IMG/VR virus record: IMGVR_UViG_2654588181_000004
Reading direction: 5' to 3' (one strand)
Length of the DNA: 15,991 nt
Source: a virus
Lineage: Duplodnaviria; Heunggongvirae; Uroviricota; Caudoviricetes
Positions within the stretch are counted from its first letter, which is position 1. Each line of letters opens with the position of its first letter. Below are positions 1 to 15,673 of this stretch, piece after piece. The translations under genes were made by a program, and so were the position numbers. Below the pieces are notes generated by a model, which did no database searches, was not told where the DNA came from, and saw only the letters and a program-made list of their open reading frames with translations.

Positions 1-1362
1 ATGTTTAAACCGGAACTCCTTTCCCCGGCGGGAACGCTGAAAAATATGCGTTACGCTTTCGCTTATGGCGCAGATGCTGTTTATGCGGGCCAGCCGCGTT
101 ACTCCCTGCGTGTGCGCAACAACGAATTCAACCACGAAAATCTTCAGCTCGGCATCAATGAAGCCCACGCGCTGGGGAAAAAGTTTTATGTCGTGGTCAA
201 CATTGCACCGCACAACGCCAAGCTGAAAACCTTTATCCGTGACCTGAAACCGGTGGTGGAAATGGGGCCGGATGCGCTGATTATGTCCGATCCAGGGCTG
301 ATTATGCTGGTGCGTGAGCACTTCCCTGAAATGCCGATCCACCTCTCGGTGCAGGCTAACGCCGTAAACTGGGCGACGGTGAAATTCTGGCAGCAAATGG
401 GCCTGACCCGCGTGATCCTCTCTCGCGAGCTGTCGCTGGAAGAGATTGAAGAGATCCGCAATCAGGTGCCGGATATGGAGATCGAGATCTTCGTTCACGG
501 CGCACTGTGCATGGCCTACTCCGGTCGCTGCCTGCTCTCTGGCTATATCAACAAGCGCGATCCGAACCAGGGTACCTGCACCAACGCCTGCCGCTGGGAG
601 TACAACGTCCAGGAAGGGAAAGAAGATGACGTTGGCAACATCGTACACAAGTACGAGCCGATTCCGGTGCAAAATGTTGAGCCGACGCTGGGTATCGGCG
701 CGCCAACCGACAAAGTGTTTATGATCGAAGAAGCCCAGCGTCCGGGCGAGTATATGACCGCGTTTGAAGATGAGCACGGCACTTACATCATGAACTCGAA
801 AGATCTGCGCGCCATCGCCCATGTAGAACGCCTGACCAAAATGGGCGTGCATTCGCTGAAAATCGAAGGCCGTACTAAATCTTTCTACTATTGCGCACGC
901 ACCGCACAGGTTTACCGTAAAGCTATCGATGACGCCGCTGCGGGCAAACCGTTCGATACCAGCCTGCTGGAAACTCTGGAAGGTCTGGCGCATCGTGGCT
1001 ATACCGAAGGTTTCCTGCGTCGTCATACTCACGACGATTATCAGAACTACGAATACGGTTATTCAGTTTCTGACCGCCAGCAGTTTGTTGGTGAGTTTAC
1101 CGGTGAGCGCAAGGGGGACCTCGCGGCGGTAGCGGTGAAAAATAAATTCTCCGTTGGCGACAGCCTTGAGCTGATGACGCCGCAAGGCAACATTAACTTT
1201 ACCCTTGAGCACATGGAAAACGCCAAAGGTGAAGCGATGCCGGTCGCACCAGGCGATGGTTATACTGTGTGGCTCCCGGTCCCGCAGGATCTTGAGCTCA
1301 ATTACGCTCTGCTGATGCGTAATTTCTCCGGGGAAACCACGCGTAACCCACACGGTAAGTGA
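1..1362 (+). CDS. yegQ: U32-family peptidase-like protein YegQ (TrhP, tRNA hydroxylation factor); complete, 453 aa
   Basis: Full ORF from ATG at 1 to stop at 1362. Protein has the characteristic U32 architecture and cysteine-rich segment (CMAYSGRCLLSGY...CTNACRWEY). Length and sequence match my recollection of E. coli YegQ. Confidence 0.9.
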   Translation: MFKPELLSPAGTLKNMRYAFAYGADAVYAGQPRYSLRVRNNEFNHENLQLGINEAHALGKKFYVVVNIAPHNAKLKTFIRDLKPVVEMGPDALIMSDPGLIMLVREHFPEMPIHLSVQANAVNWATVKFWQQMGLTRVILSRELSLEEIEEIRNQVPDMEIEIFVHGALCMAYSGRCLLSGYINKRDPNQGTCTNACRWEYNVQEGKEDDVGNIVHKYEPIPVQNVEPTLGIGAPTDKVFMIEEAQRPGEYMTAFEDEHGTYIMNSKDLRAIAHVERLTKMGVHSLKIEGRTKSFYYCARTAQVYRKAIDDAAAGKPFDTSLLETLEGLAHRGYTEGFLRRHTHDDYQNYEYGYSVSDRQQFVGEFTGERKGDLAAVAVKNKFSVGDSLELMTPQGNINFTLEHMENAKGEAMPVAPGDGYTVWLPVPQDLELNYALLMRNFSGETTRNPHGK

Positions 1363-1395
1363 TTAATTTCGATTATTTTTCCCGGATGGAAAATT

Positions 1396-1446
1396 CTTAG
1401 AAACCGATCACATACAGCTGCATTTATTAAGGTTATCATCCGTTTC
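1396..1446 (+). promoter_or_regulatory. Probable cyaR promoter: CRP-like site (right half GATCACA at ~1406-1412, centred about 42 bp upstream of the RNA 5' end) and -10-like TATCAT at 1434-1439
   Basis: Seen in sequence: TCACA half-site with a weaker left half (TTAGA), and a -10-like hexamer 7 nt upstream of the putative cyaR 5' end. CyaR is known to be CRP-activated. Confidence 0.45.
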
Positions 1447-1533
1447 GCTGAAAAACATAACCCATAAAATGCTAGCTGTACCAGGAACCACCTCCTTAGC
1501 CTGTGTAATCTCCCTTACACGGGCTTATTTTTT
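1447..1533 (+). ncRNA. cyaR: CyaR (RyeE) Hfq-dependent small RNA; 3' terminator hairpin overlaps the prophage attachment core
   Basis: Sequence GCTGAAAAACATAACCCATAAAATGCTAGCTGTACCAGGAACCACCTCCTTAGCCTGTGTAATCTCCCTTACACGGGCTTATTTTTT matches my recollection of E. coli CyaR. It ends in a stem (GCCTGTGTA/TACACGGGC) plus T-run and lies between yegQ and ogr, as in E. coli K-12. Confidence 0.75.
1507..1533. repeat. Prophage attachment-site core, cyaR-proximal copy (attR-type), 27 bp AATCTCCCTTACACGGGCTTATTTTTT
   Basis: Exact 27-bp direct repeat of 15488-15514. It is the reverse complement of the P2 att core as I recall it (AAAAAATAAGCCCGTGTAAGGGAGATT). Confidence 0.8.
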
Positions 1534-1596
1534 ACGTACAACAAATTGAAATAAAAGGATTTATTTCTGGTCACGTCCACGCATTGACCACATCGA

Positions 1597-1623
1597 CAAA
1601 AAAAGCCCCTCGACTGAGGGGCT
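1597..1623 (-). terminator. Rho-independent terminator downstream of ogr (stem 1604-1611/1616-1623; U-run on minus strand from the A-run 1597-1603)
   Basis: Inverted repeat AGCCCCTC-GACT-GAGGGGCT followed by TTTTTTT on the minus strand, immediately 3' of the ogr stop. A weaker T-rich tract also follows it on the plus strand, so it may act in both directions. Confidence 0.6.
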
Positions 1624-1635
1624 TTCTGTTTGTAA

Positions 1636-1854
1636 TTACATCCACATAATTTGCTGCCCTGACGGCAACGGGTGCGGCCTCACGGCGTGGACTTCTCCCG
1701 GCTTCACGATGTATCGCTGTACCGACTCATAAGTGATGAACGTGGCGCTGCAATTCACGTTCTGACACTGGTGATAACGCTCTTTTGTCGTGTCAGTGAT
1801 ATAGCGGCTTGTACGCGCATGTGCGGCATGCTGGCATAAAGGACAATGAAACAT
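1636..1854 (-). CDS. ogr: P2 Ogr-type late-gene transcriptional activator (C4 zinc finger), 72 aa
   Basis: MFHCPLCQHAAHARTSRYITDTTKERYHQCQNVNC... carries the CxxC...CxxxxC zinc-finger pattern of the Ogr/Delta family. Start taken at the internal ATG (1854), not the upstream alternative start of the track ORF. Confidence 0.85.
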   Translation of the reverse strand: MFHCPLCQHAAHARTSRYITDTTKERYHQCQNVNCSATFITYESVQRYIVKPGEVHAVRPHPLPSGQQIMWM

Positions 1855-1935
1855 CGCGAGCACCTCTTCCGGTTTTGTTGATGGTGCCATTTTAGTCAAT
1901 TTATCCTTATAAAACAAACAGATAAACAAAACACA

Positions 1936-3099
1936 TCACTCATCATCTTCTGTTTCATACTCCACATCAGAAAGCCTGACCTCAAGTTCTAAGGACGTCG
2001 TGAAGCCGCTATTATTCAGAAAGTGAGTCACCTTAGTGATTGTCCAGTCCTGCTCGTCTATGACGCGCTTAAAGCCTGACACTTTAACTGGTGTTTCCGT
2101 GTAAATATCTGCCCGACCGGTAGCCAGGCTGATGGAGAACTCCGCCACACCCCGTTGCAGTTTATCCCACTTCGCCTGAGCGGCGCGCATGGCCTGCGCT
2201 TTCGTGGCATATACCGTGGTCAGGGCAAAAACGTTGTCAGCTTCACCGGCCATGTATTCACCTTCGCGCGCTTCCGGTACTTTTGGCGCTTTCTTCTGCG
2301 TGACTGGTTTCGCTTTCGGGTGCTCCAGTGCGCGCAGGTGTTTTTCTTTCTTTTTGCGTTTCAGTTTTACCTTCTGCTTTTGCGGCTTCGGGTCTTTGGT
2401 GTGAAGCCACTTTGCCGTTACGCCGGTATAGGCTCCACGGTCAGCAATCGCAAAATGGTGGCGGTCGCCGTCGCTGCGGGTTATGGTGACCTGCGGGATT
2501 TTTTTACCGCTGGCCGTCACCCCCTGCCCCGCTTTGAGAAACAACAGTTTTCCCATTTTTACCGAGACCTCACCGCCGTTGCGTTCTGCAAGACGGGTCA
2601 GGAATTTCGCATCAGACTCCTGCGACTGGTCGATGTGCGGAATTTTAATTCCGGCCAGTGACGGCGCGACACTGGCTTCCAGCCTGTTACGGGAGGCTAT
2701 CGCCTCAACAATCGCACCGAGCGTGGTGTCATGCCATGAGCCTTCCCGGCGGGAATTGAGCGTCCCGCGAAAATCTGCACTCCGGGCACGGATGGTGACC
2801 ACATCCGGCGCGCCCCGGTGTTCAACCTCATCAACGGTAAATTTCCCTTTGCATACCAGGGCAAAACCTTTCCAGCCGATATACACCGTCAGGACAGCGC
2901 CACGAACCGGCAGCCCGACCTGCCCGTCGGCATCGTTCAGTTCAATATCAAGCTGGTCAGCCTCAAAGCCCCGGTTATCCGTCAGGGTCATGCTCATCAG
3001 ACGGTCGCTGATATTGCCGGTAATATCCCTGCTGTCGAGCATCAGCATGTAATCCGGCGTCAGCGTACTGCCTGCATCAAATGTCAGCGTATCCAGCAT
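1936..3099 (-). CDS. D: P2 gpD-like tail protein (late control gene D), 387 aa
   Basis: 387-aa ORF, the same length as P2 gpD, directly upstream of ogr in the P2 gene order. Its ATG overlaps the stop of the upstream ORF (TAATG). Confidence 0.85.
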   Translation of the reverse strand: MLDTLTFDAGSTLTPDYMLMLDSRDITGNISDRLMSMTLTDNRGFEADQLDIELNDADGQVGLPVRGAVLTVYIGWKGFALVCKGKFTVDEVEHRGAPDVVTIRARSADFRGTLNSRREGSWHDTTLGAIVEAIASRNRLEASVAPSLAGIKIPHIDQSQESDAKFLTRLAERNGGEVSVKMGKLLFLKAGQGVTASGKKIPQVTITRSDGDRHHFAIADRGAYTGVTAKWLHTKDPKPQKQKVKLKRKKKEKHLRALEHPKAKPVTQKKAPKVPEAREGEYMAGEADNVFALTTVYATKAQAMRAAQAKWDKLQRGVAEFSISLATGRADIYTETPVKVSGFKRVIDEQDWTITKVTHFLNNSGFTTSLELEVRLSDVEYETEDDE

Positions 3100-5039
3100 T
3101 ATCCCGCCCCCGTCATACCCGTGAATTTAGTTGCCATACTGCCCGCCTTCAGCCCTTCAACCACACCGCCAAAGAATGCGCTGACAGGCTCCCAGTATTT
3201 ACGGATAAGTAACGCCCCGGCGACAATAGCGGCCACCACAGCCACAACCGGCCAGCTAATCGCCCCGATGGCGGTCATAACAGCACTGCCAACCGTCGTG
3301 AAGATTGCCCCCATTGCGCCTGCTGCCGCGATGATGGCATTAATGCCGGTGATAACCGGCCAGGCTACAAGACCAATTGCACCGATGATGCCAGTAAGCG
3401 CCAGTGCACCGCCAGCAATGATGCCGATGGTTGACGCCAGTGATTTGTTTTTCTGTATCCAGCCGTCGAGTTTTAACACATACTTTGTGGCCGTCTGCGT
3501 GAGATTACGCAGTGCGCCTTCCTGCTGGTCAAACAGGTCAGTCCCCACCGCCTCATAAGCGGACTGAAACTCTTTAAAGTCACCGCCTAGGTTGTCCTGC
3601 ATGATATTTACCAGCTCGGCGGTCTTCCCGTCTGAGGCTTTAAACGCAGCGGTCAGTTTGTCCAGCTTTCCGGTTGAGGCGGCAGTCATCAGCACGGCGG
3701 CGGCTGAGCTGGCTTCCTCCCCGAAAATGGTTTTCATGTATTCAGCCTGCTGGGCAGTACCGAGCCGGTTTTTCTCAAAACTGGCCTGCATTTCTTTCAG
3801 AATGGTAAATATTGGTCGGGTGTTTCCCTTGCTGTCTGAGGTTTTCACACCAAGCTCTTTGAGTGCATCCCATGCTTTTCCCGTCGGTGCCTGCAGGCGG
3901 CTTAACACGGCACGGCTTCCCGTCCCCGCCATTGAACCGGTAATTTTTGCATCATGCAGCGCCCCGACCATTGCGGCGGTTTCTTCAATGCTGACACCGG
4001 CATTTTTTGCCACAGGTGCGGCATAGGTCAGCGCATCGCTCATGCCGTCAAAATCGGCGGCGGTTTTGTTCATCGTCATGGAGAGAACATCCCCGATATG
4101 AGCGACCTTATCGTTTGAAAGCTGAAAGGCGGATTTCATCCCCATCAGCAGGGCGGCGTTTTCTTCCATCGTGCGACGGTTCGCCAGCGCCATATTCAGC
4201 GTGACCGGCGTTGCCGCCTGAATGGCATCAACATCCCCACCGGCTTTCGCAATGATAATCTGCGCACCGGCAGCATCATCCGCCGAGGCGGCTGTGTTGT
4301 CGCCGAGCTGGCGCGCCTGCTTGCGGAGTGCAGCCATTTCGGCGGAGTCTTTTGCCACACCGAGCACGGCCTGCAATTCTGAGTTTTTCTGCGCAAACTC
4401 ATAACCGGGCATCAGCAGCTTAACTCCGGCCATCGTTCCCGCCGCCGCAATCCCCACACCGGCAGCGCCCACTGAGGCCATATTTCCGGCCAGTTCCTTT
4501 CCTGCCTGATAACGCTGTTTGACTGCGTTAAGTTTTGCCTGTTGTGCACTGACACGCGCCAGCGCGTCACGCTGTCGGTTAAGCTGTGCGGTGGTTTCAC
4601 TGATACGGTTTTTCAGTCCCTGCTCATCATGTGCAAGATTGCGGGTATTAATTCCCACAACGGCCAGTTCCCGCTGCTGGCGTTTAACGGAATCCGTCAG
4701 GCGGTTATATTTCGCCTGTAAGTCCTCCGCCGCACGCTTTGCGGATTCCAGCAATTTCGCCTGAGCACGGGTCGGACGTTCGGTGTTTTTAAACTGTGTG
4801 GCAAGGGCTTCGGCCTCCTGCCGTGCCTTTTCAAGTGCATGACCAGTCACGGCGAGCTGTGCACTGGTCTTGCGGAATCCCTCAATACGGGATGCGTGAC
4901 CGTTCAGCTCGCGCAGTGATTTTTGTGTTTCCCGGATATCCCCCGACAGCGACTTGCTCGCTGTACGGATGGATTTAAACGGGCGGGATGCCTGGTCAAC
5001 AGCCCTGAGCAATACCTGTAATTTTACATTGTTACTCAT
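3099..5039 (-). CDS. T: Tail tape-measure protein, gpT-like, 646 aa; probably shortened at its C-terminus, with no separate gpU gene
   Basis: Long Ala/Gln-rich coiled-coil protein ending in a hydrophobic Gly/Ala-rich segment, encoded immediately after E+E'. P2 gpT is about 815 aa as I recall, followed by gpU; here the ORF stops at the D start codon. Confidence 0.7.
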   Translation of the reverse strand: MSNNVKLQVLLRAVDQASRPFKSIRTASKSLSGDIRETQKSLRELNGHASRIEGFRKTSAQLAVTGHALEKARQEAEALATQFKNTERPTRAQAKLLESAKRAAEDLQAKYNRLTDSVKRQQRELAVVGINTRNLAHDEQGLKNRISETTAQLNRQRDALARVSAQQAKLNAVKQRYQAGKELAGNMASVGAAGVGIAAAGTMAGVKLLMPGYEFAQKNSELQAVLGVAKDSAEMAALRKQARQLGDNTAASADDAAGAQIIIAKAGGDVDAIQAATPVTLNMALANRRTMEENAALLMGMKSAFQLSNDKVAHIGDVLSMTMNKTAADFDGMSDALTYAAPVAKNAGVSIEETAAMVGALHDAKITGSMAGTGSRAVLSRLQAPTGKAWDALKELGVKTSDSKGNTRPIFTILKEMQASFEKNRLGTAQQAEYMKTIFGEEASSAAAVLMTAASTGKLDKLTAAFKASDGKTAELVNIMQDNLGGDFKEFQSAYEAVGTDLFDQQEGALRNLTQTATKYVLKLDGWIQKNKSLASTIGIIAGGALALTGIIGAIGLVAWPVITGINAIIAAAGAMGAIFTTVGSAVMTAIGAISWPVVAVVAAIVAGALLIRKYWEPVSAFFGGVVEGLKAGSMATKFTGMTGAG

Positions 5040-5459
5040 TCGTGTTTCCGCTTCGCCGGAGCGCCTTTTCGCGCCATGTGATGAGTTCGGTCAGACTCAT
5101 GGGATACAGTTCTGATGGCGGCCAGTGAAATATCACTGCCACATCCGCCATCAGGTCATCGACCGACAGATTTTTCGGGAACGTCACTGCACCGAGTTCG
5201 GCGACAAAAAACCGACCACCTTACCGGCCAGCGCCACAAGGTCAGGCAGTTCCAGCGCGGCGACCTCCTGCTCGGTCAGCATCGGTGCCGTCATGCGCGG
5301 CAGCACTTTAATCAGTGCATCGACTTCGGAGTTTGCGACCGCAGCCAGACTGACACCGCGCAGCGTCCCGGCATTAGGTTTCATCAGCGTGACCTGTTCG
5401 ATAACCTGTTCACCACGTTTAACCGGATTATCCAGGGTAATGACGTTTTCTTTGTTCAT
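5032..5459 (-). CDS. gpE+E' -1 frameshift fusion product, predicted 142 aa
   Basis: Reading the -1 frame after the TTTTTTG site gives a 57-codon open extension (VAELGAVTFPKNL...RRSGNTNE) ending at a TAA that overlaps the T start. 85 + 57 = 142 aa, matching the P2 E+E' length as I recall it. Confidence 0.6.
5184..5459 (-). CDS. E: P2 gpE-like tail assembly chaperone, 91 aa (zero-frame product)
   Basis: 91-aa ORF between FII and T, the same length and position as P2 gpE. Contains the T6G slippery site near its 3' end. Confidence 0.85.
   Translation of the reverse strand: MNKENVITLDNPVKRGEQVIEQVTLMKPNAGTLRGVSLAAVANSEVDALIKVLPRMTAPMLTEQEVAALELPDLVALAGKVVGFLSPNSVQ
5205..5211 (-). other. Programmed -1 ribosomal frameshift slippery heptamer T TTT TTG (E to E+E')
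   Basis: Minus-strand sequence GGTCGGTTTTTTGTCGCC. Heptamer position and an open -1 frame are both seen in the sequence. Analogous to the lambda G/GT and P2 E/E' frameshift. Confidence 0.6.
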
Positions 5460-5515
5460 GGTTTTCTCACTTCTGAATCGGGGTTAACCGGTCAGCCAGG
5501 CTGACCGGATGAAAA

Positions 5516-6034
5516 TCACAGGCCGATATTGCGGCGGTGTTGCTCCAGCCGGTCGACGCCGTTCACCTTCTCAATCATGTTGATGGTGTCGATTTCGACC
5601 AGCTCCTTACCGTCCATCGTCAGCCGGAAATAGGTGCAGACCACGGAGATTTTCGACTCGGTGTCTTCTCCTTGTTTACCCTCGCCGGTGTCGATTTCTT
5701 TCTGACGGCCACGCATGACCACCTCGACGGCCACCGTTTCGCCGGTATCGTCGCGCTGGTAAGAGCCTGCAAAACGAATCGGCACAGCATCCACACCGGT
5801 TGCGGCGTAAAGCTCCCAGATAACCGAATCCGGGAAGCCCCCGAGCGACCACTCCATTGACAGCGCATCGTCATCAAGGCCGAGGTCTACCGGTGCGCTG
5901 CCGTTCATCCCCGCACCGCGATAGTTTTCGAGCTTACGGGTCAGTTTTGGCAGCGTGACGGACTTTGCAACGCCCTGATAGCTGTAGCCGTTCAGAAAGA
6001 CGTTCATTAACTTGAGTTTGCGCGGCATTGCCAT
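5516..6034 (-). CDS. FII: P2 gpFII-like tail tube protein, 172 aa
   Basis: 172-aa ORF, the P2 FII length, located between the FI remnant and E. Confidence 0.85.
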   Translation of the reverse strand: MAMPRKLKLMNVFLNGYSYQGVAKSVTLPKLTRKLENYRGAGMNGSAPVDLGLDDDALSMEWSLGGFPDSVIWELYAATGVDAVPIRFAGSYQRDDTGETVAVEVVMRGRQKEIDTGEGKQGEDTESKISVVCTYFRLTMDGKELVEIDTINMIEKVNGVDRLEQHRRNIGL

Positions 6035-6046
6035 CGGTCAGGCTCC

Positions 6047-6490
6047 TTAATTGCTGTTAACCGAGGTGACCAGATTTGCCAGGTATTTATCGGTAATACG
6101 CTGGCGCAGGGTCAGGTTTTCGAGAGGAGGCACCGGTGTATAGTCGTAGTCGATATACAGTTTTCCGGCCTTGAGGGTTTCCGCATCGTTGGATTCTTCG
6201 CTGAACCAGCATGAGCCATCCACTATATAGCCGTTTGTTTTCAGCTCACGGAATTTGGCATTGATGCCGTCAACGATGTCGCGAATCAGCGTTGCGGTGA
6301 TGGGCTTGTCCACCGCCCACATGTGCGCCTCAGCCATCGTGTCGGCCAGCACCTGCGCGGTGCGGGTGTAGTTTTCAAAGAGGAACAGCGGGTCATCAGA
6401 GCAGGTACGGTTACCCCAGAAGCGGAAACCGTCGCGGCGAATCAGCGTTGTGACGCCTGACTCATTAAGCAGGTCAGCATCGGTGTCCGC
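6047..6490 (-). pseudogene. FI: Tail sheath gene FI, 3' fragment only (about 150 C-terminal codons); 5' portion deleted
   Basis: Reading frame is open upstream of the track ORF up to about 6505 with no start codon (…[59 protein letters not shown]…). It then collides with an unrelated plus-strand frame. A full sheath protein would be about 390 aa. Confidence 0.7.
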
Positions 6491-6595
6491 AATGAGCTTA
6501 TCCCGTTACAGGACAGGATCCGCGAGATAAACGGCTGGCTCGGTCAGGAGGTCATCCGCTTTAAAAACTACTCACTGGACACTGACAACGGCTGA
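6491..6595 (+). pseudogene. Probable 3'-terminal fragment of the portal/capsid gene Q (…LQDRIREINGWLGQEVIRFKNYSLDTDNG*)
   Basis: Short open frame ending at TGA 6593-6595, followed by a terminator and then the cos site about 170 bp downstream. This is where the 3' end of Q lies in P2. The exact junction with FI (about 6460-6510) cannot be fixed without a reference. Confidence 0.4.
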
Positions 6596-6600
6596 ACATC

Positions 6601-6622
6601 GCCGCCTGCGGGCGGCTTTTTT
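6601..6622 (+). terminator. Rho-independent terminator (GCCGCC-TGCG-GGCGGC + TTTTTT)
   Basis: Perfect 6-bp GC stem, 4-nt loop and a T6 run directly after the Q-fragment stop. Confidence 0.65.
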
Positions 6623-6764
6623 GCACCCCGTCATCACGCCCTCACACGCTCACCACCGCACAAAACACCCCGCAGACACACCAACGCCACGGCGCACAAT
6701 CTAAACGCCATCACGACGCGCTGAGACGCTGAAAAAATAAAATCAGCACCACCGCCAGCGCGCA

Positions 6765-6783
6765 GTGCTTTCCCCGCCTCGCC
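6765..6783. other. P2-type cos site (19-nt cohesive end), present as the reverse complement GTGCTTTCCCCGCCTCGCC
   Basis: Reverse complement equals GGCGAGGCGGGGAAAGCAC, which I recall as the P2 cohesive-end sequence. Flanking sequence also resembles the P2 left end. Confidence 0.7.
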
Positions 6784-7087
6784 CGCCCGCTTCATGGGGC
6801 GGTTTTAATGCAGTTGCATGATGAAACTGAAATCACATCAGCACTGACCGAAACTGACAAAAAGAATAGTATCTGACACATGCAAAAACACGCACTTAAT
6901 ATACGCCTATCTATAGCTCCTACAGGATTGTCAAAAAACGACCAACTCGTCATAGCGTAAACACATTTGGCTCAACGAACACTTACGTTATATGCCTCTT
7001 GCACATATCAAAGTCTTAAGGTAGATCTTTACCACTAAGTGGCTATATTAAGCTGCTTTTTTACATACAATAAAAGCTTTATCGTAT

Positions 7088-7091
7088 GAGG
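7088..7091 (+). promoter_or_regulatory. Shine-Dalgarno GAGG, 7 nt upstream of the ATG of the 738-aa ORF; an AT-rich putative promoter region lies at about 6990-7080
   Basis: GAGG followed by CATAAAA then ATG. The upstream 300 bp is AT-rich with several -10-like hexamers (for example TATATT at 7044-7049), none assigned with confidence. Confidence 0.45.
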
Positions 7092-7098
7092 CATAAAA

Positions 7099-9315
7099 AT
7101 GGAACTTAGATTAAAAAATGTTACCAGTTATAAGAAAGACGCCTTCACAATACTGAATCTTGAAAAAAGAGTAAACATACTATACGGCCAAAATGGTTGT
7201 GGCAAATCTACCATTTCAAATTATTTCTACGACTCTACACACACAGATTATAACGAGTGTGAATGTACCCTTCTTGACAATTACAAACCTCTTGTTTACA
7301 ACACTAAATTTATTGAAGATAATTTCTACAATGCACAGGAACAAAAAGGTGTTTTTACATTAAGTAAAGAAAATGCAGATATTGAAAAACAATTAATTGA
7401 AAAAGAAGCAATTAAACAGCAACTTACAGAGCAATATAGACAAAAAAAAGGAGTGTTATTGAAATTAGAAGCAGAAATGGAAAAAAAAGAAAATGAATAC
7501 ATCGAATCGATCTGGAAAAAAACAGAACCAATCAGAAACTCTGTACTAAAAACCTTAATGAAAGGTAAAGTTGGCTATAAAAGACCTTTTTTTGAGATGA
7601 TAAAATCATCCTCACCAATCACCTTTATTAATTTAAATGATATAGCAAAAGAATACTCTATACTATTAGAAAATAGAAACAATGAAACCGCATTAATAAC
7701 TCCTTTACATCCATATACCCCATCAATTGATGATGTAAATACATTAGCAACACCTATAATAGATACAAGCAATAGCTATTTATCAGAAACCATTAATAAA
7801 CTTCATAATCTTGACTGGGTAAAAAAAGGTAAAGAACATTATTTAGACGGTTCTACATGTCCGTTTTGTCAGGAAAAAACTATTAGTCACGAATTTTTAA
7901 ATGCCCTTAAATCAATATTTGACGAAAGTTATTCAAAGAAAGTAAAACAGCTCTCAGATATAAAGTCAGTTTATGAGAAAAATACCATATATCATTTTAA
8001 CGAAATACAAAACAATATATCATCATGTGCACTAATCAATGAGAAAGATAAAGAGATCATTATTTCCAATATTAAAATATTGCAAAACATTGCAGAAAAA
8101 AATTTAATAAACATTATTGATAAGATCAACAATCCATCAACATGCGTTACATTAGAAATTGATAAAGAACTAGAAAATCATGTTCAGGAAAGCATAGACG
8201 CTGTTAACAAAAAAATAAGAGACATAAATGATAAGGTTAAAAAACTCAAAGAGTATGAGAATAAAATCGGAAAACAAGTTTGGGGGGCTCTCCATGCTTT
8301 TTGCAGCGATGATTTAGAGAATTTATCCAAACACAAAGAAAAATTCTTTGATATCAAAAAGAAAGTTCATGATGAATTAAATAATATTGAGCAACAAGGA
8401 AAAGAAAATAATCTCACAATAAAAGCATTGCGAGATAAAATATCTAACATTGATTCTACGATAGACTCAATAAACACCCATTTAAAAAATCTAGGGATCT
8501 CTGGTTTTTGTATTGAAAAACATGCAGAAAGAAAAGATATGTACATTATATCTCGACCAGGGCATACAAAAAACCAAAATGTTTATAGATCTCTTAGCGA
8601 AGGTGAAAAAACACTAATAACGTTTCTTTATTTTTTAGAGTGCTGTAAAGGTAAAACCGATAAAAATGATACCGATAGCAGGGATATTTTTATTGTTATT
8701 GACGATCCAATATCTAGTCTATCGCAAAACTATGTCTACGACATCGCATCAATTATTCATCACCACATTATAAAAAATGAATCAACAAAGAAGGTATTAA
8801 TCCTTACTCACAATCTTTATTTCTTTCATGAACTTATTAAGCTATCTCCTAAAAGCAGAGAAGACAAACTATTTAAGAAAAACTATTATCTAGGTAGAGT
8901 AACGAAAAATTATTTTAGTATAATTACTGAAATACAAAAAAACAGCATACAGAATGAATATCAATCTTTGTGGCAAATATTAAAAGATGCAAAAGATGGC
9001 AAAGCAAACAAAATCATAATACCTAATATTATGAGAAACATACTAGAATATTATTTTGCATTTGTTCATAGAACAGATGCTCTACAAGATGAATTAACAA
9101 AGTTGGCACGCGACGATAGCAACAGTGATTTCAAAGCATTCTACAGATACATTAACAGAGGTTCTCACTCTGATGCGGTAAATATTACTGATATGGGCGA
9201 CATAGACCCAGATAAATACCTAAAACAATTGAGAACAATATTTTCAGCTACTGGTGACGAAATGCATTATTTAAAAATGATGGACGAACTAGAAGAGGAG
9301 AACGTTACCGCTTAG
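7099..9315 (+). CDS. RloC/PrrC-like protein: ABC (Rad50/SMC-like) ATPase with coiled-coil insert and CxxC hook, plus a small C-terminal HEPN-like nuclease domain; candidate abortive-infection anticodon nuclease
   Basis: 738-aa ORF with a good SD. Walker A GQNGCGKST (aa 30-38), K/E-rich coiled-coil stretches, CPFC (aa 254-257), ABC signature-like LSEGEK (499-504), Walker B DIFIVIDDP (529-537), H-loop LILTHN (567-572). C-terminal R646-x3-E650 and R683-x6-H690 resemble the PrrC/RloC R-E-H residues. Strongly AT-rich compared with the flanking prophage genes. Confidence 0.6.
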   Translation: MELRLKNVTSYKKDAFTILNLEKRVNILYGQNGCGKSTISNYFYDSTHTDYNECECTLLDNYKPLVYNTKFIEDNFYNAQEQKGVFTLSKENADIEKQLIEKEAIKQQLTEQYRQKKGVLLKLEAEMEKKENEYIESIWKKTEPIRNSVLKTLMKGKVGYKRPFFEMIKSSSPITFINLNDIAKEYSILLENRNNETALITPLHPYTPSIDDVNTLATPIIDTSNSYLSETINKLHNLDWVKKGKEHYLDGSTCPFCQEKTISHEFLNALKSIFDESYSKKVKQLSDIKSVYEKNTIYHFNEIQNNISSCALINEKDKEIIISNIKILQNIAEKNLINIIDKINNPSTCVTLEIDKELENHVQESIDAVNKKIRDINDKVKKLKEYENKIGKQVWGALHAFCSDDLENLSKHKEKFFDIKKKVHDELNNIEQQGKENNLTIKALRDKISNIDSTIDSINTHLKNLGISGFCIEKHAERKDMYIISRPGHTKNQNVYRSLSEGEKTLITFLYFLECCKGKTDKNDTDSRDIFIVIDDPISSLSQNYVYDIASIIHHHIIKNESTKKVLILTHNLYFFHELIKLSPKSREDKLFKKNYYLGRVTKNYFSIITEIQKNSIQNEYQSLWQILKDAKDGKANKIIIPNIMRNILEYYFAFVHRTDALQDELTKLARDDSNSDFKAFYRYINRGSHSDAVNITDMGDIDPDKYLKQLRTIFSATGDEMHYLKMMDELEEENVTA

Positions 9316-9564
9316 GCCGCATATTATCGTTTTGGGTAAGAACGACGGTGCTTACGCACCGTCTCCCAACGCCCAAAGCGGTAGCGGTTGTACTGGCGTA
9401 CATTCACTAGCTTTAACATGAGGCAATCTCCATGCCAGCACTATTGTTGCCAATAGCAGCCTTTATACCCTTTGTACAAAGCTAATACCAAGAGTAATGC
9501 AAAGTAGATGTCCCAAGCGGTAACGGGGCTATTCTATGTCAAACACAGAAAAAATCAAAGCACC

Positions 9565-11829
9565 CTATGAATCCCCCCAACCATCAGCGACCGGATACGT
9601 GAATTTTTTCCCGTCATAATTTACGGTCGCTCCACGCGCCAGCGCCTCAAGCTCCCATCGCTGCGGCCTGATACCGTTCTGAGCAAGGTCAACGCGGATA
9701 CGGGTGATTTGCAATCGTTCAGACCTGGTCAGTCTGGCAGATGGTGCAATTTCATGCGGTTTTAACGGGCTTCCGTTTCTTTGCTGACGGTTTGGCGTTC
9801 TCAGGTCGTATTTTAATGCGCCCCTGAGCGCCCTCACGACCTCCGGTTCATTCCATTCAATAACACCGTCATCAACCAGATTAAGCACTGCTGCGGCGTG
9901 CTCAGAAGGTGTGGGAGCCGGTAACGAAGTATCACCACCGGTGAGCTTTCCACAGTTATTGACAGGACTCCGAGGCGCGGCGATGCCGCTTTTTAAAGTC
10001 AAAGGCTCAACGACCGGAACTTTCGGAACAATGCGCCAGTCCGTCGTTCTGGTGATATGAATATGACGCGCGCCGAGATGCGGCGCGTAAATGCCGACCA
10101 CTCTCTCGACTTCTTCCTCGTACTCGTTAACTTCATCCGACGGACTACGGGCAACCCTGACAGTCTGACAATCGCGCGGAACATTTGCCCCACCCTGCGC
10201 GCTGATATACAACGCAAAATCACCACTGTCTGCGGCGGCGCGTGCAGCCTCGACGCGTTCGTCAAACTCATCAGCAATGCTGACGCCGCGAGGCAATTTG
10301 CGTAGTTCACGGTAAGCGCCCATTGTCGGCAGGCCAACCGTTTTAAATTGCGGGATACGCCACGTTGACGCCCATGCGGTAACAGCCGCTGCAGTGTCTT
10401 TCAGCGGCCTGCCGGTATCGTTATCGAGCTGACCATCCAGTGCATAGCCGTCGATATTTTTTGAGATGTATTTTGCGATATATCCCGCAGCACCGCCCCG
10501 GTTAAGGTGTTTTGCCTGAAAACGGTTTCGCGCGGCTCCTCTTTCGTTACCATCCTCTTTGAGCGCATAGCGACGCATGATTTCGATAATCTGGTTACGC
10601 TGGCGTGGATTACAAAAAAGCATCATATGCCAGTGCGGCGTTCCGTCGTGGTGTGGCTCGACGACACGCAAACCGTAGACCTGTAAATCATTATCCTTGA
10701 ATGCCGTGCGCATCAGGCTCCAGATACGGCAGAGATAACGCTGCGCATCCTTCGGATTAAATGCCTCATCGTTCCAGCCGTGATTAAGCTGGACGGTTTT
10801 ACTTTCTCCTTTTCCGACCTGACGTGTCGGGTGATACTTTGACGGCGTGGTCAGCGTGATAAACATCCCCACATCACCCTCTGCGGCGGCGTAACGCTCA
10901 ATACCGGCAATGGTGTTCATCAGCTCCATCCGGCGAATTTCAGGATTAGAAATACTGCCCATCACCTTACTGATAAGGTCGATGCGCTCGCCGGTTTCCC
11001 TGTTTTCAAGGTCACATGATTTAAGAAACTCCAGATTTGCCTGGCGGCGCGCACGCACATCACGAATGGCATGTTTACTGGCATAAGGAGAACGGTCTTT
11101 ATTGACCTCCCCGACAGCAATCAGTAACGCCTCATGCCAGCGCATGCGCTGGCCTTTAAGCTGATGAGTCCACCACTCATCGTTAAACAGACGGGCAATG
11201 GCAGAATATGCCTGCCTCGTGGTCATCTGTCCTTTACGGTATTTTTTCCAGTAGAGAGGGGAAATATTGAAAGCTCGTGCAGCGCCAGCAACATGACCAT
11301 ACAGGTGATCCTGAGCCTCATCCGTAAACAGTGATTCTTTTTCGCCATGCGCATCCACCCAGGCATCGCTGAGTTCCTCATACATCATGAAAAGCTGCGA
11401 TGAGATACGGGCGGCAAACTTTTTCAGCTCCTTGTCATTCATTCCCGGCAGGCGCGCATAGTGGTCACGCTCTGCCAGAAACAGCAACGACGCGTCGGTG
11501 TTCATTTCATGGCGCTGATTCACACGCTCAATGCGCGGCCATAAACGACGCTGAAAAGTGGATGTGAGGAAATAAAACCCGTGTACCGGGCTTTTATTGC
11601 GCCTGATGTAGTCATAGCGTGAAGTAAACAGCGAGCGCAAAAAGTAAGGCAGGCGGTTAATCGTGGATAAAACACCTTGCACCTGACGCATCTCATCACG
11701 TGTAAGAGGTCTTTCGCGCCCGACAGCCTCGCGTGGCGCGTTCCATGCATAAGCACCGGTAAACATCTTACCGGTGCCTGCGGCAAATGCTGACGGAGGG
11801 ACAAAACGCCCGGAGGCTTTAACGGCCAT
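9565..11829 (-). CDS. A: P2 gpA-like rolling-circle replication initiator (HUH endonuclease)
   Basis: HUH motif (PHWHMMLF) and catalytic tyrosine motif (GYIAKYISKNIDG). The N-terminus MAVKASGRFVPPSAF... matches my recollection of the P2 A start; the track ORF extends 14 codons further upstream from a TTG (to 11871), which I consider less likely. Confidence 0.8.
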   Translation of the reverse strand: MAVKASGRFVPPSAFAAGTGKMFTGAYAWNAPREAVGRERPLTRDEMRQVQGVLSTINRLPYFLRSLFTSRYDYIRRNKSPVHGFYFLTSTFQRRLWPRIERVNQRHEMNTDASLLFLAERDHYARLPGMNDKELKKFAARISSQLFMMYEELSDAWVDAHGEKESLFTDEAQDHLYGHVAGAARAFNISPLYWKKYRKGQMTTRQAYSAIARLFNDEWWTHQLKGQRMRWHEALLIAVGEVNKDRSPYASKHAIRDVRARRQANLEFLKSCDLENRETGERIDLISKVMGSISNPEIRRMELMNTIAGIERYAAAEGDVGMFITLTTPSKYHPTRQVGKGESKTVQLNHGWNDEAFNPKDAQRYLCRIWSLMRTAFKDNDLQVYGLRVVEPHHDGTPHWHMMLFCNPRQRNQIIEIMRRYALKEDGNERGAARNRFQAKHLNRGGAAGYIAKYISKNIDGYALDGQLDNDTGRPLKDTAAAVTAWASTWRIPQFKTVGLPTMGAYRELRKLPRGVSIADEFDERVEAARAAADSGDFALYISAQGGANVPRDCQTVRVARSPSDEVNEYEEEVERVVGIYAPHLGARHIHITRTTDWRIVPKVPVVEPLTLKSGIAAPRSPVNNCGKLTGGDTSLPAPTPSEHAAAVLNLVDDGVIEWNEPEVVRALRGALKYDLRTPNRQQRNGSPLKPHEIAPSARLTRSERLQITRIRVDLAQNGIRPQRWELEALARGATVNYDGKKFTYPVADGWGDS

Positions 11830-12094
11830 ATGAGCCAAAAGCCTCTGAACAACGCCTGCTGAGTTGCTCAACCTGCGCGTTTAAATCAGCAAAAGACTTT
11901 GCGCTTCCGGTCAGAATATCGTGATGCATCAGGCCGGAAACGAGCTGGCTTAATTTCGGGTAATAACCAACCACCGCCAGCCATTCCTGACCGGCGTTTT
12001 TACCGCTTTCCGCTCTCTTTTTCTCGTGGAGAATAAACTGAAAGCTGTCACTGGTAACGACATAACGTTCGCCAATTTCAATACGAATACTCAT
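11819..12094 (-). CDS. Small early-region protein, unknown function (P2 orf83-position)
   Basis: 91-aa ORF in an overlapping, co-oriented string between B and A; stop overlaps the A start. Confidence 0.55.
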   Translation of the reverse strand: MSIRIEIGERYVVTSDSFQFILHEKKRAESGKNAGQEWLAVVGYYPKLSQLVSGLMHHDILTGSAKSFADLNAQVEQLSRRCSEAFGSYGR

Positions 12095-12315
12095 GCCGTT
12101 CTCCGGTAATGTTTGTTTTTTGCTTCAAAGACTGACTGACAGGAAACACAACGCGTGGCTGACGGGTAAGCCGCACGACGGGCAGCAGGTATTGGCGCGT
12201 CACACTCTTCGCAAACCAGCGCAGAAGCACCGCAATGTTTTACCCTTGCCGCGTTAATCTGGCGCTCCAGTAATTCAGCCTGTTGTTCCTGAATAAAATC
12301 TACGTTGTCCGGCAT
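12091..12315 (-). CDS. DksA/TraR-family C4 zinc-finger protein (P2 orf82-position)
   Basis: 74 aa with CEEC...x17...CVSC (Cx2C-x17-Cx2C); start overlaps the stop of the upstream ORF (ATGA). Confidence 0.65.
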   Translation of the reverse strand: MPDNVDFIQEQQAELLERQINAARVKHCGASALVCEECDAPIPAARRAAYPSATRCVSCQSVFEAKNKHYRRTA

Positions 12316-12317
12316 TA

Positions 12318-12620
12318 TCAGCTCCTTTTATCGTTAAGTTTCCTGGATACATCAGCGCAATAACTGGCAAGCTCTGTCGTTAATTTTGTCAGTTCATCCA
12401 CTGAGGAAATTTGCTTGTGGAATACAGCGCGTTTAACAAGTAAATTGACCACATCAGACAGGAGGTTTAATTCATTCTGATAAATCGCGATAACAGATTC
12501 AGTTATGTCGCGTTTTTCTTTATCAAGGCAAAGTTGAATAAGAGACAAATCGCCATTTTTCATAACGGCGATTTTTAAGGCGTTATTCAGTAATACAACT
12601 GAATGAGAACAGGACATCAA
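12318..12620 (-). CDS. Small early-region protein, unknown function (P2 orf81-position)
   Basis: 100-aa ORF, co-oriented and tightly packed with neighbours; locally more AT-rich than the flanking genes. Confidence 0.5.
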
Positions 12621-12874
12621 AGCACCTCCCCGCGAGACAATCCGATATTGTGAAATTTTTCCGACTCCTGACTGAGCAGCTCGACTATCTCCACGCGGGA
12701 TAACTCCGCCTTTGTGATATGGCGAATCATGGCGTCAAGATGAGAAGAAAAGCGTGTCGCTGCGTCGGCCTGTGCTTCGGTTCTGGCCTGTTGCAGCAGT
12801 AATGCGTATTTACCGCACTGATTTTCAGAAACTGTATGCATGACTTTCTCCAGGCAAAAAGAAGCCCCGCACAA
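12617..12874 (-). CDS. Small early-region protein, unknown function (P2 orf80-position); true start may be the internal Met
   Basis: 85-aa ORF whose stop overlaps the next start (ATGA). Confidence 0.45.
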
Positions 12875-12904
12875 TTAAGTGCGTTAAAAACTCTGGTTAA
12901 TTAC

Positions 12905-13405
12905 TTAATGCAGATATTGCTCTGGTTTTACCGACGTCAGAATTGTCGGTGCATACTCAAACAGGCTGAACAATTCACGTAATGCACGGAATAAAGCATC
13001 ACGCCAGTAACATGATTCTTCATTAATTCGCCAGTATGGCTGGTTGAATTCTTTTTCAGTCAATCCGGCATGCATAAATAAAGTACGACGCTGACTGACT
13101 GTTAAAAAACTAATATATGCATACTCACTTGCGCCAACCTGACGGCGTTTTGAGAATGCCCCACGCAATTCATCAATTGCGCAAACCAGCCGTTCACGTT
13201 CGACGTCGTTCATTTCTTCAAAACGCATCGTTGCGTGACGCTGTTTTAACTGCGCATGGAAGCAAACCGTTAGCCGTTCGCGTTCCATCATCTGATTATA
13301 ATAATCGCATGTCTCCTGCCAGCGAGGGACGGCCAGATGCTTACCAATTATCCGGCGCATAGCTGCTGGCTGTTTTTCAACGAGATTGAGCGTCATCACT
13401 GTCAT
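12905..13405 (-). CDS. B: P2 gpB-like replication protein (helicase-loader-like), 166 aa
   Basis: 166 aa, the P2 gpB length, between cox and the small ORFs preceding A. Confidence 0.8.
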   Translation of the reverse strand: MTVMTLNLVEKQPAAMRRIIGKHLAVPRWQETCDYYNQMMERERLTVCFHAQLKQRHATMRFEEMNDVERERLVCAIDELRGAFSKRRQVGASEYAYISFLTVSQRRTLFMHAGLTEKEFNQPYWRINEESCYWRDALFRALRELFSLFEYAPTILTSVKPEQYLH

Positions 13406-13572
13406 TTCCAGACCCTCCGGCTTTTCAGAAAGGTCAGAGCCTTTTTTAACGGACTCTGTTTTTTGGTGCGGATAATGATTCCCTTACGCCCCTTACCGTG
13501 GGTGATGGTGAAGTCAATCGCCCTGGGGCTTTCGTTACGCAATAACTGAGCAATACAACGAGGCTCATTCAT
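13402..13572 (-). CDS. Small basic protein (P2 orf78-position); start taken at the internal ATG
   Basis: The track ORF (13402..13596) overlaps the cox 3' end by 14 nt; the internal Met gives a 56-aa product starting just after the cox stop. Confidence 0.4.
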   Translation of the reverse strand: MNEPRCIAQLLRNESPRAIDFTITHGKGRKGIIIRTKKQSPLKKALTFLKSRRVWK

Positions 13573-13582
13573 ACGGTTCTCC

Positions 13583-13858
13583 TTAACGTGGTTCACCGAG
13601 ACCTAACCACATCAACCAGCCGTCACGAATCTCTTTAGGACGGCTTTCATAAGCCAGTTTTAGTCCGTTATTCCATGCCGGAAGGTATACCCAATATTCA
13701 CCAGCACGCCCCGATACTGACTGAGGGTCAGTAATCTCAATAACTGGTAATTTCCCTTTCTCAATCATGCCCCTTACAGCTCTTGGAGTTTTGCCAATGA
13801 GTTTTGCAAACTCCTGATAAGGCACGGCATCAGTCACGCTTACAAGCTGTCTATTCAT
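13583..13858 (-). CDS. cox: P2 Cox-like excisionase/early repressor (HTH), 91 aa
   Basis: 91 aa, the P2 Cox length, divergent from the C repressor gene and first gene of the cox-B-A operon; HTH-like segment FAKLIGKTPRAVRGMIEKGKLP. Confidence 0.75.
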   Translation of the reverse strand: MNRQLVSVTDAVPYQEFAKLIGKTPRAVRGMIEKGKLPVIEITDPQSVSGRAGEYWVYLPAWNNGLKLAYESRPKEIRDGWLMWLGLGEPR

Positions 13859-13880
13859 CTGCTACGATTCTCCCTTAGTG

Positions 13881-13901
13881 CTTCTAATGGCTCCTAATGG
13901 C
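13881..13901. promoter_or_regulatory. Tandem direct repeats (T/C)CTAATGGCT x2 in the cox/C intergenic switch region; candidate C-repressor operator half-sites at the early promoter
   Basis: Two 10-bp tandem copies seen in the 121-bp cox-C intergenic region. P2 C repressor is known to bind direct repeats flanking the -10 of the early promoter. Confidence 0.4.
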
Positions 13902-13979
13902 TAATTATTGCCTAAAAGGATAACTCCAGAAGCACAACATTTCATACCATCAGCAAGAAATTACGCAATCGGAGTAATT

Positions 13980-14279
13980 ATGTCAATAGACGTTTCGGAG
14001 AAGTTGAAGCTAATCCGTGAATCTGAAAGGTTAAACCGTAAAGAATTCAGTGAATTAACTGGTGTAGCCTACAGCTCACTTTCGAGCTATGAGAGCCGGT
14101 CAAAAAACGCTGGAGTTGAAGCCATAATGAAGGTCTTACAACATCCTAGATTTACTAAATATACTTTGTGGTTCATGACTGATCAGGTAGCTCCAGAAGC
14201 CGGGCAAATTGCGCCCGCTCTCGCACACTTTGGGCAAAACGAAACAACGTCGCCCCACTCCGGTCAAAAGACTGGTTAA
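13980..14279 (+). CDS. C: P2 C-type immunity repressor, 99 aa
   Basis: MSIDVSEKLKLIRESE...TKYTLWFMTDQVAPEAGQIAPALAHFGQNETTSPHSGQKTG closely resembles the P2 C protein as I recall it. Start taken at the internal ATG, giving the canonical 99 aa. Confidence 0.85.
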   Translation: MSIDVSEKLKLIRESERLNRKEFSELTGVAYSSLSSYESRSKNAGVEAIMKVLQHPRFTKYTLWFMTDQVAPEAGQIAPALAHFGQNETTSPHSGQKTG

Positions 14280-14394
14280 CAATTTATCGTGAATATATTC
14301 ATCACAAGTGCCTACTATTGGTGGCTAAATTTCAGCCACCACGAAAAAAGCGATTAGTAGTAGCAAAAAAAAGTACCACTCGGAGGGTTTTCTG

Positions 14395-15408
14395 ATGGCA
14401 ATCAAAAAACTCGATGATGGTCGATATGAAGTGGACATCCGCCCTACTGGACGTAACGGAAAACGCATCCGTAGGAAGTTTGATAAGAAAAGCGAAGCTG
14501 TCGCTTTCGAAAAATACACGTTGTACAACCACCACAATAAAGAATGGCTATCAAAACCAACAGACAAACGACGTCTGTCGGAACTGACACAGATCTGGTG
14601 GGATTTAAAGGGTAAACACGAAGAGCATGGGAAATCTAATCTTGGAAAAATTGAAATCTTCACAAAAATAACGAATGACCCATGCGCATTTCAAATCACG
14701 AAATCCCTTATCAGCCAGTACTGCGCCACCCGAAGAAGTCAGGGTATTAAACCTTCGAGTATCAATCGTGATTTAACATGTATTAGCGGCATGTTTACAG
14801 CCCTGATTGAAGCGGAGTTATTCTTTGGTGAGCACCCTATCAGAGGGACAAAGAGGCTTAAGGAGGAAAAACCAGAAACAGGCTATCTCACACAGGAAGA
14901 AATTGCCTTACTGCTTGCAGCACTTGACGGCGACAATAAAAAGATTGCGATTCTTTGCCTGAGTACAGGAGCACGTTGGGGAGAAGCAGCTCGTTTGAAA
15001 GCAGAAAATATCATCCATAACCGCGTCACATTTGTTAAAACGAAAACAAACAAACCACGCACCGTCCCGATCTCAGAGGCTGTTGCCAAAATGATCGCGG
15101 ATAACAAACGAGGTTTTTTATTCCCTGATGCTGATTACCCTCGCTTCAGACGAACAATGAAAGCAATAAAACCGGATTTGCCAACGGGGCAAGCCACACA
15201 TGCACTAAGGCACAGCTTTGCCACTCATTTCATGATTAATGGAGGAAGTATTATCACGCTACAACGGATACTAGGTCACACGCGGATTGAGCAAACTATG
15301 GTTTACGCTCATTTTGCGCCAGAGTACCTTCAGGACGCCATTTCTCTTAATCCGCTAAGAGGTGGTACTGAGGCCGAGAGTGTCCACACAGTGTCCACAG
15401 TAGAGTAA
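14395..15408 (+). CDS. int: P2-type tyrosine integrase, 337 aa
   Basis: 337 aa, the P2 Int length, with tyrosine-recombinase catalytic motifs (HALRHSFATHF; LGHTRIEQTMVYAH). Adjacent to the att core at the prophage end. Confidence 0.9.
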   Translation: MAIKKLDDGRYEVDIRPTGRNGKRIRRKFDKKSEAVAFEKYTLYNHHNKEWLSKPTDKRRLSELTQIWWDLKGKHEEHGKSNLGKIEIFTKITNDPCAFQITKSLISQYCATRRSQGIKPSSINRDLTCISGMFTALIEAELFFGEHPIRGTKRLKEEKPETGYLTQEEIALLLAALDGDNKKIAILCLSTGARWGEAARLKAENIIHNRVTFVKTKTNKPRTVPISEAVAKMIADNKRGFLFPDADYPRFRRTMKAIKPDLPTGQATHALRHSFATHFMINGGSIITLQRILGHTRIEQTMVYAHFAPEYLQDAISLNPLRGGTEAESVHTVSTVE

Positions 15409-15487
15409 CGTTTAAGGGCTTTCAGTGGTAATTTATGCCGCTCAAACCCGCATTGTACCGTTGAAAGCCCCTACTGGTGACACCCTA

Positions 15488-15514
15488 AATCTCCCTTACA
15501 CGGGCTTATTTTTT
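15488..15514. repeat. Prophage attachment-site core, int-proximal copy (attL-type), 27 bp AATCTCCCTTACACGGGCTTATTTTTT
   Basis: Exact direct repeat of 1507-1533, located about 80 bp downstream of the int stop. Confidence 0.8.
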
Positions 15515-15673
15515 TATGCATAAGCCCTATCTCTGGTAACCGTCTTCCATTGACCACATCGATAGAATCCTCCTTCATAGCACGATGCCTTTCACTTATC
15601 GGCATCGTGCTCCCACAGGTTCCGGCTACGCACAGCCAGAACGCGCATATTTGACGCTTACCAAAAAATATTC

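Follow-up and report, generated by a model that had tools for sequence, protein, structure and literature searches.

The stretch of DNA analysed here, the 15,991-nucleotide (nt) IMG/VR virus record IMGVR_UViG_2654588181_000004 (hereafter the window), comes from a P2-like prophage and carries on its plus strand, at positions 7099-9315, a gene coding for a protein of 738 amino acids (aa). The best reading of this gene is that it codes for an RloC-family, self-regulated anticodon nuclease and is carried alone, as cargo, in the defence hotspot that adjoins cos in the prophage, a reading to which we give a probability of about 0.7. The first-pass annotation of the window had proposed an RloC/PrrC-like ATPase-nuclease at this position, and the checks that it suggested were favourable to this proposal or neutral, none going against it. 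The locus is composed of the following features, given in window coordinates:

6484-6595, plus strand: 3' remnant of portal gene Q (last ~37 codons), left conserved flank of the hotspot, matched in complete genomes and with its breakpoint placed by blastn
6765-6783, minus strand: P2-type cos cohesive-end sequence GGCGAGGCGGGGAAAGCAC, an exact 19-nt match (0 expected by chance)
6849-9568, no strand assigned: variable hotspot cassette, comprising the cargo gene with its own leader and trailer and delimited by the break and resumption of homology
7088-7091, plus strand: GAGG Shine-Dalgarno sequence, read from the sequence, 7 nt 5' of the ATG
7099-9315, plus strand: RloC-like gene, ATG start, 738 aa, stop codon included
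9565-11871, minus strand: replication gene A, right conserved flank of the hotspot (Pfam Phage_GPA, E = 1.3e-122)

According to the first-pass annotation, the cargo gene has no other gene beside it in the interval from cos to gene A, and this is borne out, as no other open reading frame (ORF) of at least 60 aa is present there. Two ORFs of 53 aa, both on the minus strand, overlap with the cos region and leader, and the corresponding leader region is without gene call in 10 of the 10 assemblies examined. The 19-nt GGCGAGGCGGGGAAAGCAC is the sequence of the P2 cohesive end; the linear genome record of the Yersinia phage L-413C starts at cos, and its bases 1-55 align to window positions 6765-6819. 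Similarity to other P2-like phages (vB_YpM_50, L-413C) stops at 6848 and restarts at 9569, only the flanks being in common, and unrelated cargo (DUF3850, Fic/VbhT, DUF4209 and others) is found at the same slot in other phages. On the left side, a match annotated as 'phage portal protein' begins at 6484 in 42 complete Escherichia coli genomes. The gpA-gpQ hotspot beside cos is known to harbour a variable cassette, P2 itself having old and tin there (Rousset 2022, PMC9122126). The cassette at 6849-9568 is, by this definition, the cargo of a P2-like cos-proximal hotspot located between gpA and gpQ.

The base composition of the ORF clearly differs from that of its surroundings: its G+C content is 0.295 (0.247 at third codon positions), compared to 0.542 in the left flank (1-6595) and 0.475 in the right one (9565-15991). 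Such a contrast (roughly 30% versus ~50%, by eye) had been taken to indicate a recent acquisition. The contrast itself holds, but the inference on timing is weakened, as a lower G+C than that of the flanks is also observed at 30 of 41 homologous loci of other species, with a median difference of 8.7 points. Because low G+C is thus a trait of the family, AT-richness alone cannot date the acquisition of the cargo gene. The number of promoter sites found by scanning (14, versus 11.8 expected by chance) is not above chance. As for the part of the cassette located 3' of the stop codon (9316-9568, ~250 bp), it is not AT-rich. An inverted repeat, GACGGTG-CTTACG-CACCGTC, is present there at ~9347-9366, with no T run after it, and 2 of 10 assemblies have a gene call for a 31-aa ORF on the minus strand (9324-9419). 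In some of the loci listed by Rousset 2022 (PMC9122126, Table S5A), a small 'hypothetical' gene (WP_077461969) adjoins the AAA_13 gene.

At the protein level, conservation was counted in an alignment of 49 homologues, the identity of which to the query ranges from 66% down to 19%. The motifs and domains, all on the plus strand, are arranged as follows:

7186-7212, plus strand: Walker A GQNGCGKST, aa 30-38 (G30, G35 and K36 invariant, 49/49)
7372-8439, plus strand: helical coiled-coil insert in the ATP-binding cassette (ABC) ATPase head, aa 92-447, with long helices at its ends (92-141 and 403-447) in the AlphaFold model
7858-7869, plus strand: CPFC motif of the predicted zinc hook, aa 254-257 (C254 and C257 invariant, P255 and F256 47/49)
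8593-8610, plus strand: ABC signature LSEGEK, aa 499-504 (E501, G502 and E503 invariant)
8683-8709, plus strand: Walker B/D-loop DIFIVIDDP, aa 529-537 (D535, D536 and P537 invariant)
8797-8814, plus strand: H-loop LILTHN, aa 567-572 (T570 and H571 invariant)
8932-9312, plus strand: predicted all-alpha nuclease domain of PrrC/RloC type (HEPN-like), aa 612-738, with the codons of R646 at 9034-9036, of E650 at 9046-9048 and of S689-H690 at 9163-9168

Every motif that had been read by eye (GQNGCGKST, CPFC, LSEGEK, DIFIVIDDP, LILTHN, R646, E650, R683 and H690) is located at the residues initially given. Since their key residues, R683 apart, are invariant or nearly so in an alignment that extends down to 19% identity, these motifs are more than strings that occur by chance. 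The ATPase head is interrupted by an insert of ~355 residues, and in the AlphaFold full-length model (predicted local distance difference test, pLDDT, of 82.3) CPFC lies in the inter-helix loop near the midpoint of this insert. The nearest solved structures to the full-length model are Rad50, SMC heads with coiled coil, AriA and the Lamassu protein LmuB. The insert with its invariant CxxC is thus, as modelled, a Rad50-like coiled coil with a predicted zinc hook.

The C-terminal domain, of ~125 residues, carries the putative catalytic residues, which read R646-x3-E650-x39-S689-H690. N643 and R646 are invariant (49/49), and E650 (47/49, the other two sequences having Asp), S689 (47/49) and H690 (48/49) are nearly so. 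The signature that defines RloC is a C-proximal Arg-X3-Glu-X36-52-His, often with a Ser before the His (Davidov & Kaufmann 2008, PMC2610378), and the R646, E650 and H690 residues fit it, in agreement with the initial proposal that they resemble the Arg-Glu-His residues of PrrC/RloC. R683 is less conserved (40/49); R683-x6-H690 satisfies the Rx4-6H motif of the HEPN superfamily. In the RloC of Geobacillus kaustophilus (GkaRloC), the R692A, E696A and H737A substitutions abolish anticodon nuclease activity, and C291G deregulates it (PMC2610378).

Profile searches assign the whole protein to the same family. Pfam AAA_13 matches residues 17-716 over positions 11-713 of 713 (E = 8.4e-111), AAA_23 and SMC_N matching as well, and the PADLOC PDC-S06 candidate system is matched over its full length, the best model being PDLC04886 (E = 2.7e-254, 844 bits). 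The PADLOC PrrC model aligns to residues 490-730 over positions 133-352 of 372 (E = 4.7e-13). For the present protein and for many of its relatives, this hidden Markov model (HMM) alignment is collinear over the ATPase C-lobe and on into the C-terminal domain, and in several relatives (e.g., P0165, P0177 and P0213) it reaches profile positions 348-361. NCBIfam gives no family match for the protein, and a search of PDB by sequence with the whole protein gives a marginal match to the Rad50 N-terminus only (E = 0.9). The profile searches that had been proposed as a check are positive for the whole protein, through the AAA_13 and PrrC models; the C-terminal domain by itself is matched by no PrrC or HEPN model.

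When compared to the two characterised RloC proteins, GkaRloC (YP_146738, 804 aa) and AbaRloC of Acinetobacter baylyi (ACIAD0152, 826 aa), the cargo protein is 65-90 residues shorter. It is nevertheless built like them, as one polypeptide with the same order of domains: ABC head, coiled-coil insert with CxxC, and C-terminal Arg-X3-Glu-X36-52-(Ser)His. The landmarks follow each other in the same order and with similar spacing, K44/C291/D572/R692/E696/H737 of GkaRloC corresponding to K36/C254/D535-536/R646/E650/H690 here. Like RloC, the cargo gene stands alone, without a linked restriction-modification (R-M) system, and, as first noted, no companion R-M or immunity gene is found within the 16-kb window; unlike them, it sits in a phage hotspot. 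The cargo protein and the ~790-800-aa proteins also fit different PADLOC sub-models, PDLC04886 for the former and PDLC04887 for the latter (132 bits here, 918 bits for P0114). PDC-S06 is itself a bioinformatic 'phage defence candidate' label comprising 13 HMMs, and it adds neither mechanism nor validation.

PrrC (E. coli CT196, 396 aa) shares with the cargo protein the ABC ATPase motifs and an Arg-x3-Glu...His triad (R320/E324/H356), but differs from it in several respects: (i) PrrC, at ~400 aa, has no coiled-coil/zinc-hook insert, whereas the 738-aa cargo protein has one of ~355 aa; (ii) PrrC is always found inside a type Ic hsd locus, which keeps it silent, and there are no hsd genes in the window; (iii) PrrC uses GTP and dTTP via the PrrC box and a terminal Arg of its Walker A, whereas the Walker A of the cargo protein ends in KST-I, without this Arg; and finally (iv) PrrC nicks the anticodon loop, whereas RloC excises the wobble base. 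RloC proteins lack the Walker A Arg and have a degenerate PrrC box (Klaiman 2012, PMC3458546). P2 Old, like Tin, occupies the same genomic slot as the cargo gene. Old is an ABC ATPase fused to a nuclease that acts by abortive exclusion of other phages, and it was recently reported to act on tRNA. Its effector is however a TOPRIM domain and it has no CxxC hook, whereas the effector of the cargo protein is predicted to be all-alpha and of HEPN type.

The family is widely distributed. From a set of 1.84 billion proteins, a profile of the C-terminal domain alone retrieves 1,884 cluster representatives, nearly all of them of 720-760 aa and with the domain at the extreme C-terminus. Short matches to this profile were considered as PrrC-like proteins and rejected, those tested being truncated fragments of the same family. 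Searches with the single sequence and with the alignment both give essentially the same ~120 proteins. A genome scan finds homologues in 80 other species belonging to many phyla, G. kaustophilus and A. baylyi not being among them. Relatives are present on 247 plasmids, in islands and in a few phages, and those of the Streptococcus Javan phages are annotated as "translation-disabling ACNase". As a gpA-like gene adjoins only 1 of the 80 distant homologues found in genomes, the P2-hotspot location is specific to the enterobacterial clade. The sole exception is Celerinatantimonas diazotrophica (gene at 6001-8177), where a gpA-like gene lies directly downstream (~9008-9774, 42% identity, best tblastn segment), which suggests that the arrangement of cargo next to gpA also occurs outside Enterobacterales.

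This reading had already been published. The cargo protein is identical at 734 of 738 residues (99.5%) to WP_000423308.1 of E. coli APEC O1, with four substitutions (I320N, D367G, S562L and Y605D), and the latter is encoded at the same slot of a P2-like prophage, with portal gene Q on one side and gene A on the other. The proteins that Anantharaman 2013 refers to as APECO1_4465 and Klaiman 2012 as 'E. coli APECO1 RloC' are very probably both WP_000423308.1, the gi number fitting the genome position. The "E. coli APECO1 RloC" was used by Klaiman 2012 (PMC3458546) in an evolutionary comparison with PrrC. Anantharaman 2013 (PMC3710099) took APECO1_4465 as the prototype of fusions of an ABC ATPase to HEPN, "frequently found in ... 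integrated prophages", and proposed that such fusions keep other phages from infecting without the involvement of R-M systems. In the study of Rousset 2022 (PMC9122126), WP_000423308 is among the P2-hotspot cargos (Table S5A) and AAA_13 'RloC-like' is P2-hotspot system #5, the fifth in order of frequency, with 420 occurrences (Table S5B). Both 738-aa sequences, that of the cargo and that of its APEC O1 relative, are in a public collection, one of them being named "wobble nucleotide-excising tRNase", with JGI/IMG as the probable source. The RloC-like identity and the P2 location are therefore already known (literature of 2008, 2012, 2013 and 2022; PADLOC PDC-S06), and the novelty implied by the first-pass annotation does not survive, the same reading having been published for a 99.5%-identical protein.

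Several points weigh against an RloC-type anticodon nuclease. The link to the characterised RloC proteins is indirect, through profiles, architecture, the signature and the literature, in which an APEC O1 protein is called RloC. The ATPase C-lobe accounts for ~38 of the 47 bits of the PrrC HMM match. Searched by itself against PADLOC and Pfam, the C-terminal domain matches its own family models (PDC-S06 and AAA_13) and no PrrC or HEPN model. Its profile gives nothing meaningful against PDB sequences. In the AlphaFold model, the loop carrying H690 has a pLDDT below 50, and a Foldseek search of the C-terminal model against PDB gives no significant match. Of the two structural expectations initially put forward, the Rad50-like coiled coil with its CxxC loop is thus recovered, while for the HEPN fold the evidence is modest, the domain being all-alpha as modelled. 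In addition, Anantharaman 2013 (PMC3710099) places the APECO1_4465 group 'beyond' the RloC-like and PrrC-like families proper, and its trigger and substrate may therefore differ. Finally, no AAA_13 entry is among the systems cloned by Rousset 2022 (PMC9122126, Table S2), and we found no phage challenge, toxicity test or tRNA cleavage assay in the literature on the P2-borne clade.

One alternative is that the same architecture serves another biology. The RNase could cut mRNA, rRNA or another site of tRNA, or the ATPase could sense a cue other than DNA ends, as AriA of PARIS senses Ocr. Besides the separate listing of the APECO1_4465 group, such an alternative finds support in the best sub-model, PDLC04886, being different from that of the ~790-800-aa proteins, in the presence of AriA and LmuB among the structural neighbours of the ATPase, and in the varied targets of other HEPN defence RNases (PMC3710099). 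We nevertheless consider it unlikely, as the catalytic signature and its spacing match those of two characterised anticodon nucleases, and as the invariant CxxC hook is the very element that couples DNA sensing to the nuclease in GkaRloC. A related and rather doubtful possibility is that the enterobacterial P2-hotspot clade (PDLC04886; APECO1_4465 group) constitutes a functionally distinct branch of RloC, the trigger or RNA target of which would be unlike those of the Geobacillus and Acinetobacter enzymes.

The cargo gene could also be an inactive relic, as it lies in a dead prophage. The prophage is not intact: when compared to that of APEC O1, its head, lysis and most tail genes have been lost through two deletions. 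The large one (~17-20 kb) extends from the portal N-terminus to the sheath N-terminus and has removed the head, lysis, baseplate and fibre genes, leaving a C-terminal fragment of the sheath gene fused to the portal Q remnant (junction 6483/6484, within 6047-6595). The second one (~994 bp, with a 7-bp overlap at 3143-3149, region 3099-5039) has taken away the last part of gene T and almost the whole of gene U; the tape-measure gene T is reduced to 646 aa, compared to 815 aa, and its shortened ORF runs into gene D, gene U being down to its last ~50 bp. A non-functional leftover is however improbable, as the ORF is full length with all its conserved residues intact, as only 4 of 738 residues differ from the APEC O1 copy, and as the identical protein is found on many contigs, mostly, among those read, in intact prophages located at the same yegQ/yegR site. 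In two other assemblies with the identical cargo protein, the prophage has decayed differently, the cargo and early region being kept. These independent decay patterns are compatible with the retention of a defence gene after prophage death.

Contig FNIS01000001.1 of GCA_900103855.1 matches the window at 100% identity, the large-deletion junction included, and none of 5,426 complete E. coli genomes has this junction. To the left of the sheath fragment are found the tube gene, E/E', the shortened tape-measure gene, D, ogr, the CyaR small RNA (sRNA) and a yegQ-like host gene; beyond gene A, the P2 early genes are followed by the integrase (14395-15408). The sRNA is positioned as follows:

1445-1530, plus strand: CyaR/RyeE sRNA (Rfam RF00112, 100.7 bits), between the yegQ-like peptidase U32 gene and ogr

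This position of CyaR shows that the prophage is inserted at the yegQ/cyaR-yegR site, whereas that of APEC O1 is at the pflA/pflB attachment site. The APEC O1 prophage has itself decayed in a different way, with an IS21-family element (ISEc12) inside its sheath gene. In addition, its second variable position, the Z/fun-like one, is occupied by a gene for a 'P-loop ATPase, Sll1717 family' (coordinates in the APEC O1 prophage, for the ATPase gene and the IS21-family element: 9267-10853 and 11801-14104).

A Rad50/SMC-like ATPase devoted to DNA repair or maintenance and devoid of nuclease activity, with C-terminal helices that would serve only for structure or protein binding, would account for the fold of the whole protein, which matches Rad50 and SMC, and for such database names as 'DNA repair ATPase' or 'AAA family ATPase'. 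It is very improbable, as R646, E650, S689 and H690, at positions where mutation kills RloC/PrrC activity, are conserved across phyla, as the settings of the gene are a phage defence hotspot, plasmids and islands and not repair operons, and as no Mre11/SbcD-type partner is present in the window. Finally, an ABC ATPase with a TOPRIM nuclease of the OLD/PARIS/Gabija type, which the presence of OLD at the same locus of P2 and weak, ATPase-only HMM matches to AriA, mad3 and LmuB could have suggested, and which the first-pass annotation had named as the outcome that would speak against it, is rejected, the C-terminal domain being predicted as all-alpha with no strands, no TOPRIM fold match and no Pfam TOPRIM match.

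For the RloC-type anticodon nuclease, a mechanism can be proposed from the biochemistry of the G. kaustophilus and A. baylyi enzymes (PMC2610378, PMC3458546, PMC3874168). We infer it by analogy, what was observed directly being the architecture and the residue conservation. The RNase would be kept silent in resting cells by the ATPase and zinc-hook module. Upon phage infection, linear DNA ends or double-strand breaks would stimulate ATP hydrolysis and turn the RNase on. The active RNase would then cut tRNA anticodon loops, possibly with excision of the wobble nucleotide, so that repair by phage Pnk/Rnl1 would fail. Translation would halt and the infection abort, the lysogen population and the prophage being thereby shielded from competing phages. 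As no partner gene would be necessary, such a system suits a small, swappable cassette of 2.7 kb.

tRNA-cleaving abortive infection is a current theme, with PrrC, PARIS, retron-Septu, HepS and now P2 Old, and RloC is its self-contained, DNA-damage-responsive version. The remaining value of the present locus is experimental and concerns phage protection, the trigger, the tRNA targets and the way P2 avoids activation. Its frequency in E. coli P2-like prophages makes it an abundant, easy and reasonably relevant system for such tests. Should the enterobacterial clade be a distinct branch, its trigger might for instance be the DNA ends or replication intermediates of rival phages, the cos ends and rolling-circle replication of P2 being tolerated, and hosts might keep the gene as a domesticated defence after the death of the prophage, as the independent decay patterns would suggest. 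An RloC-like gene in the P2 hotspot is in keeping with the picture of temperate phages that exchange small cassettes of defence genes.

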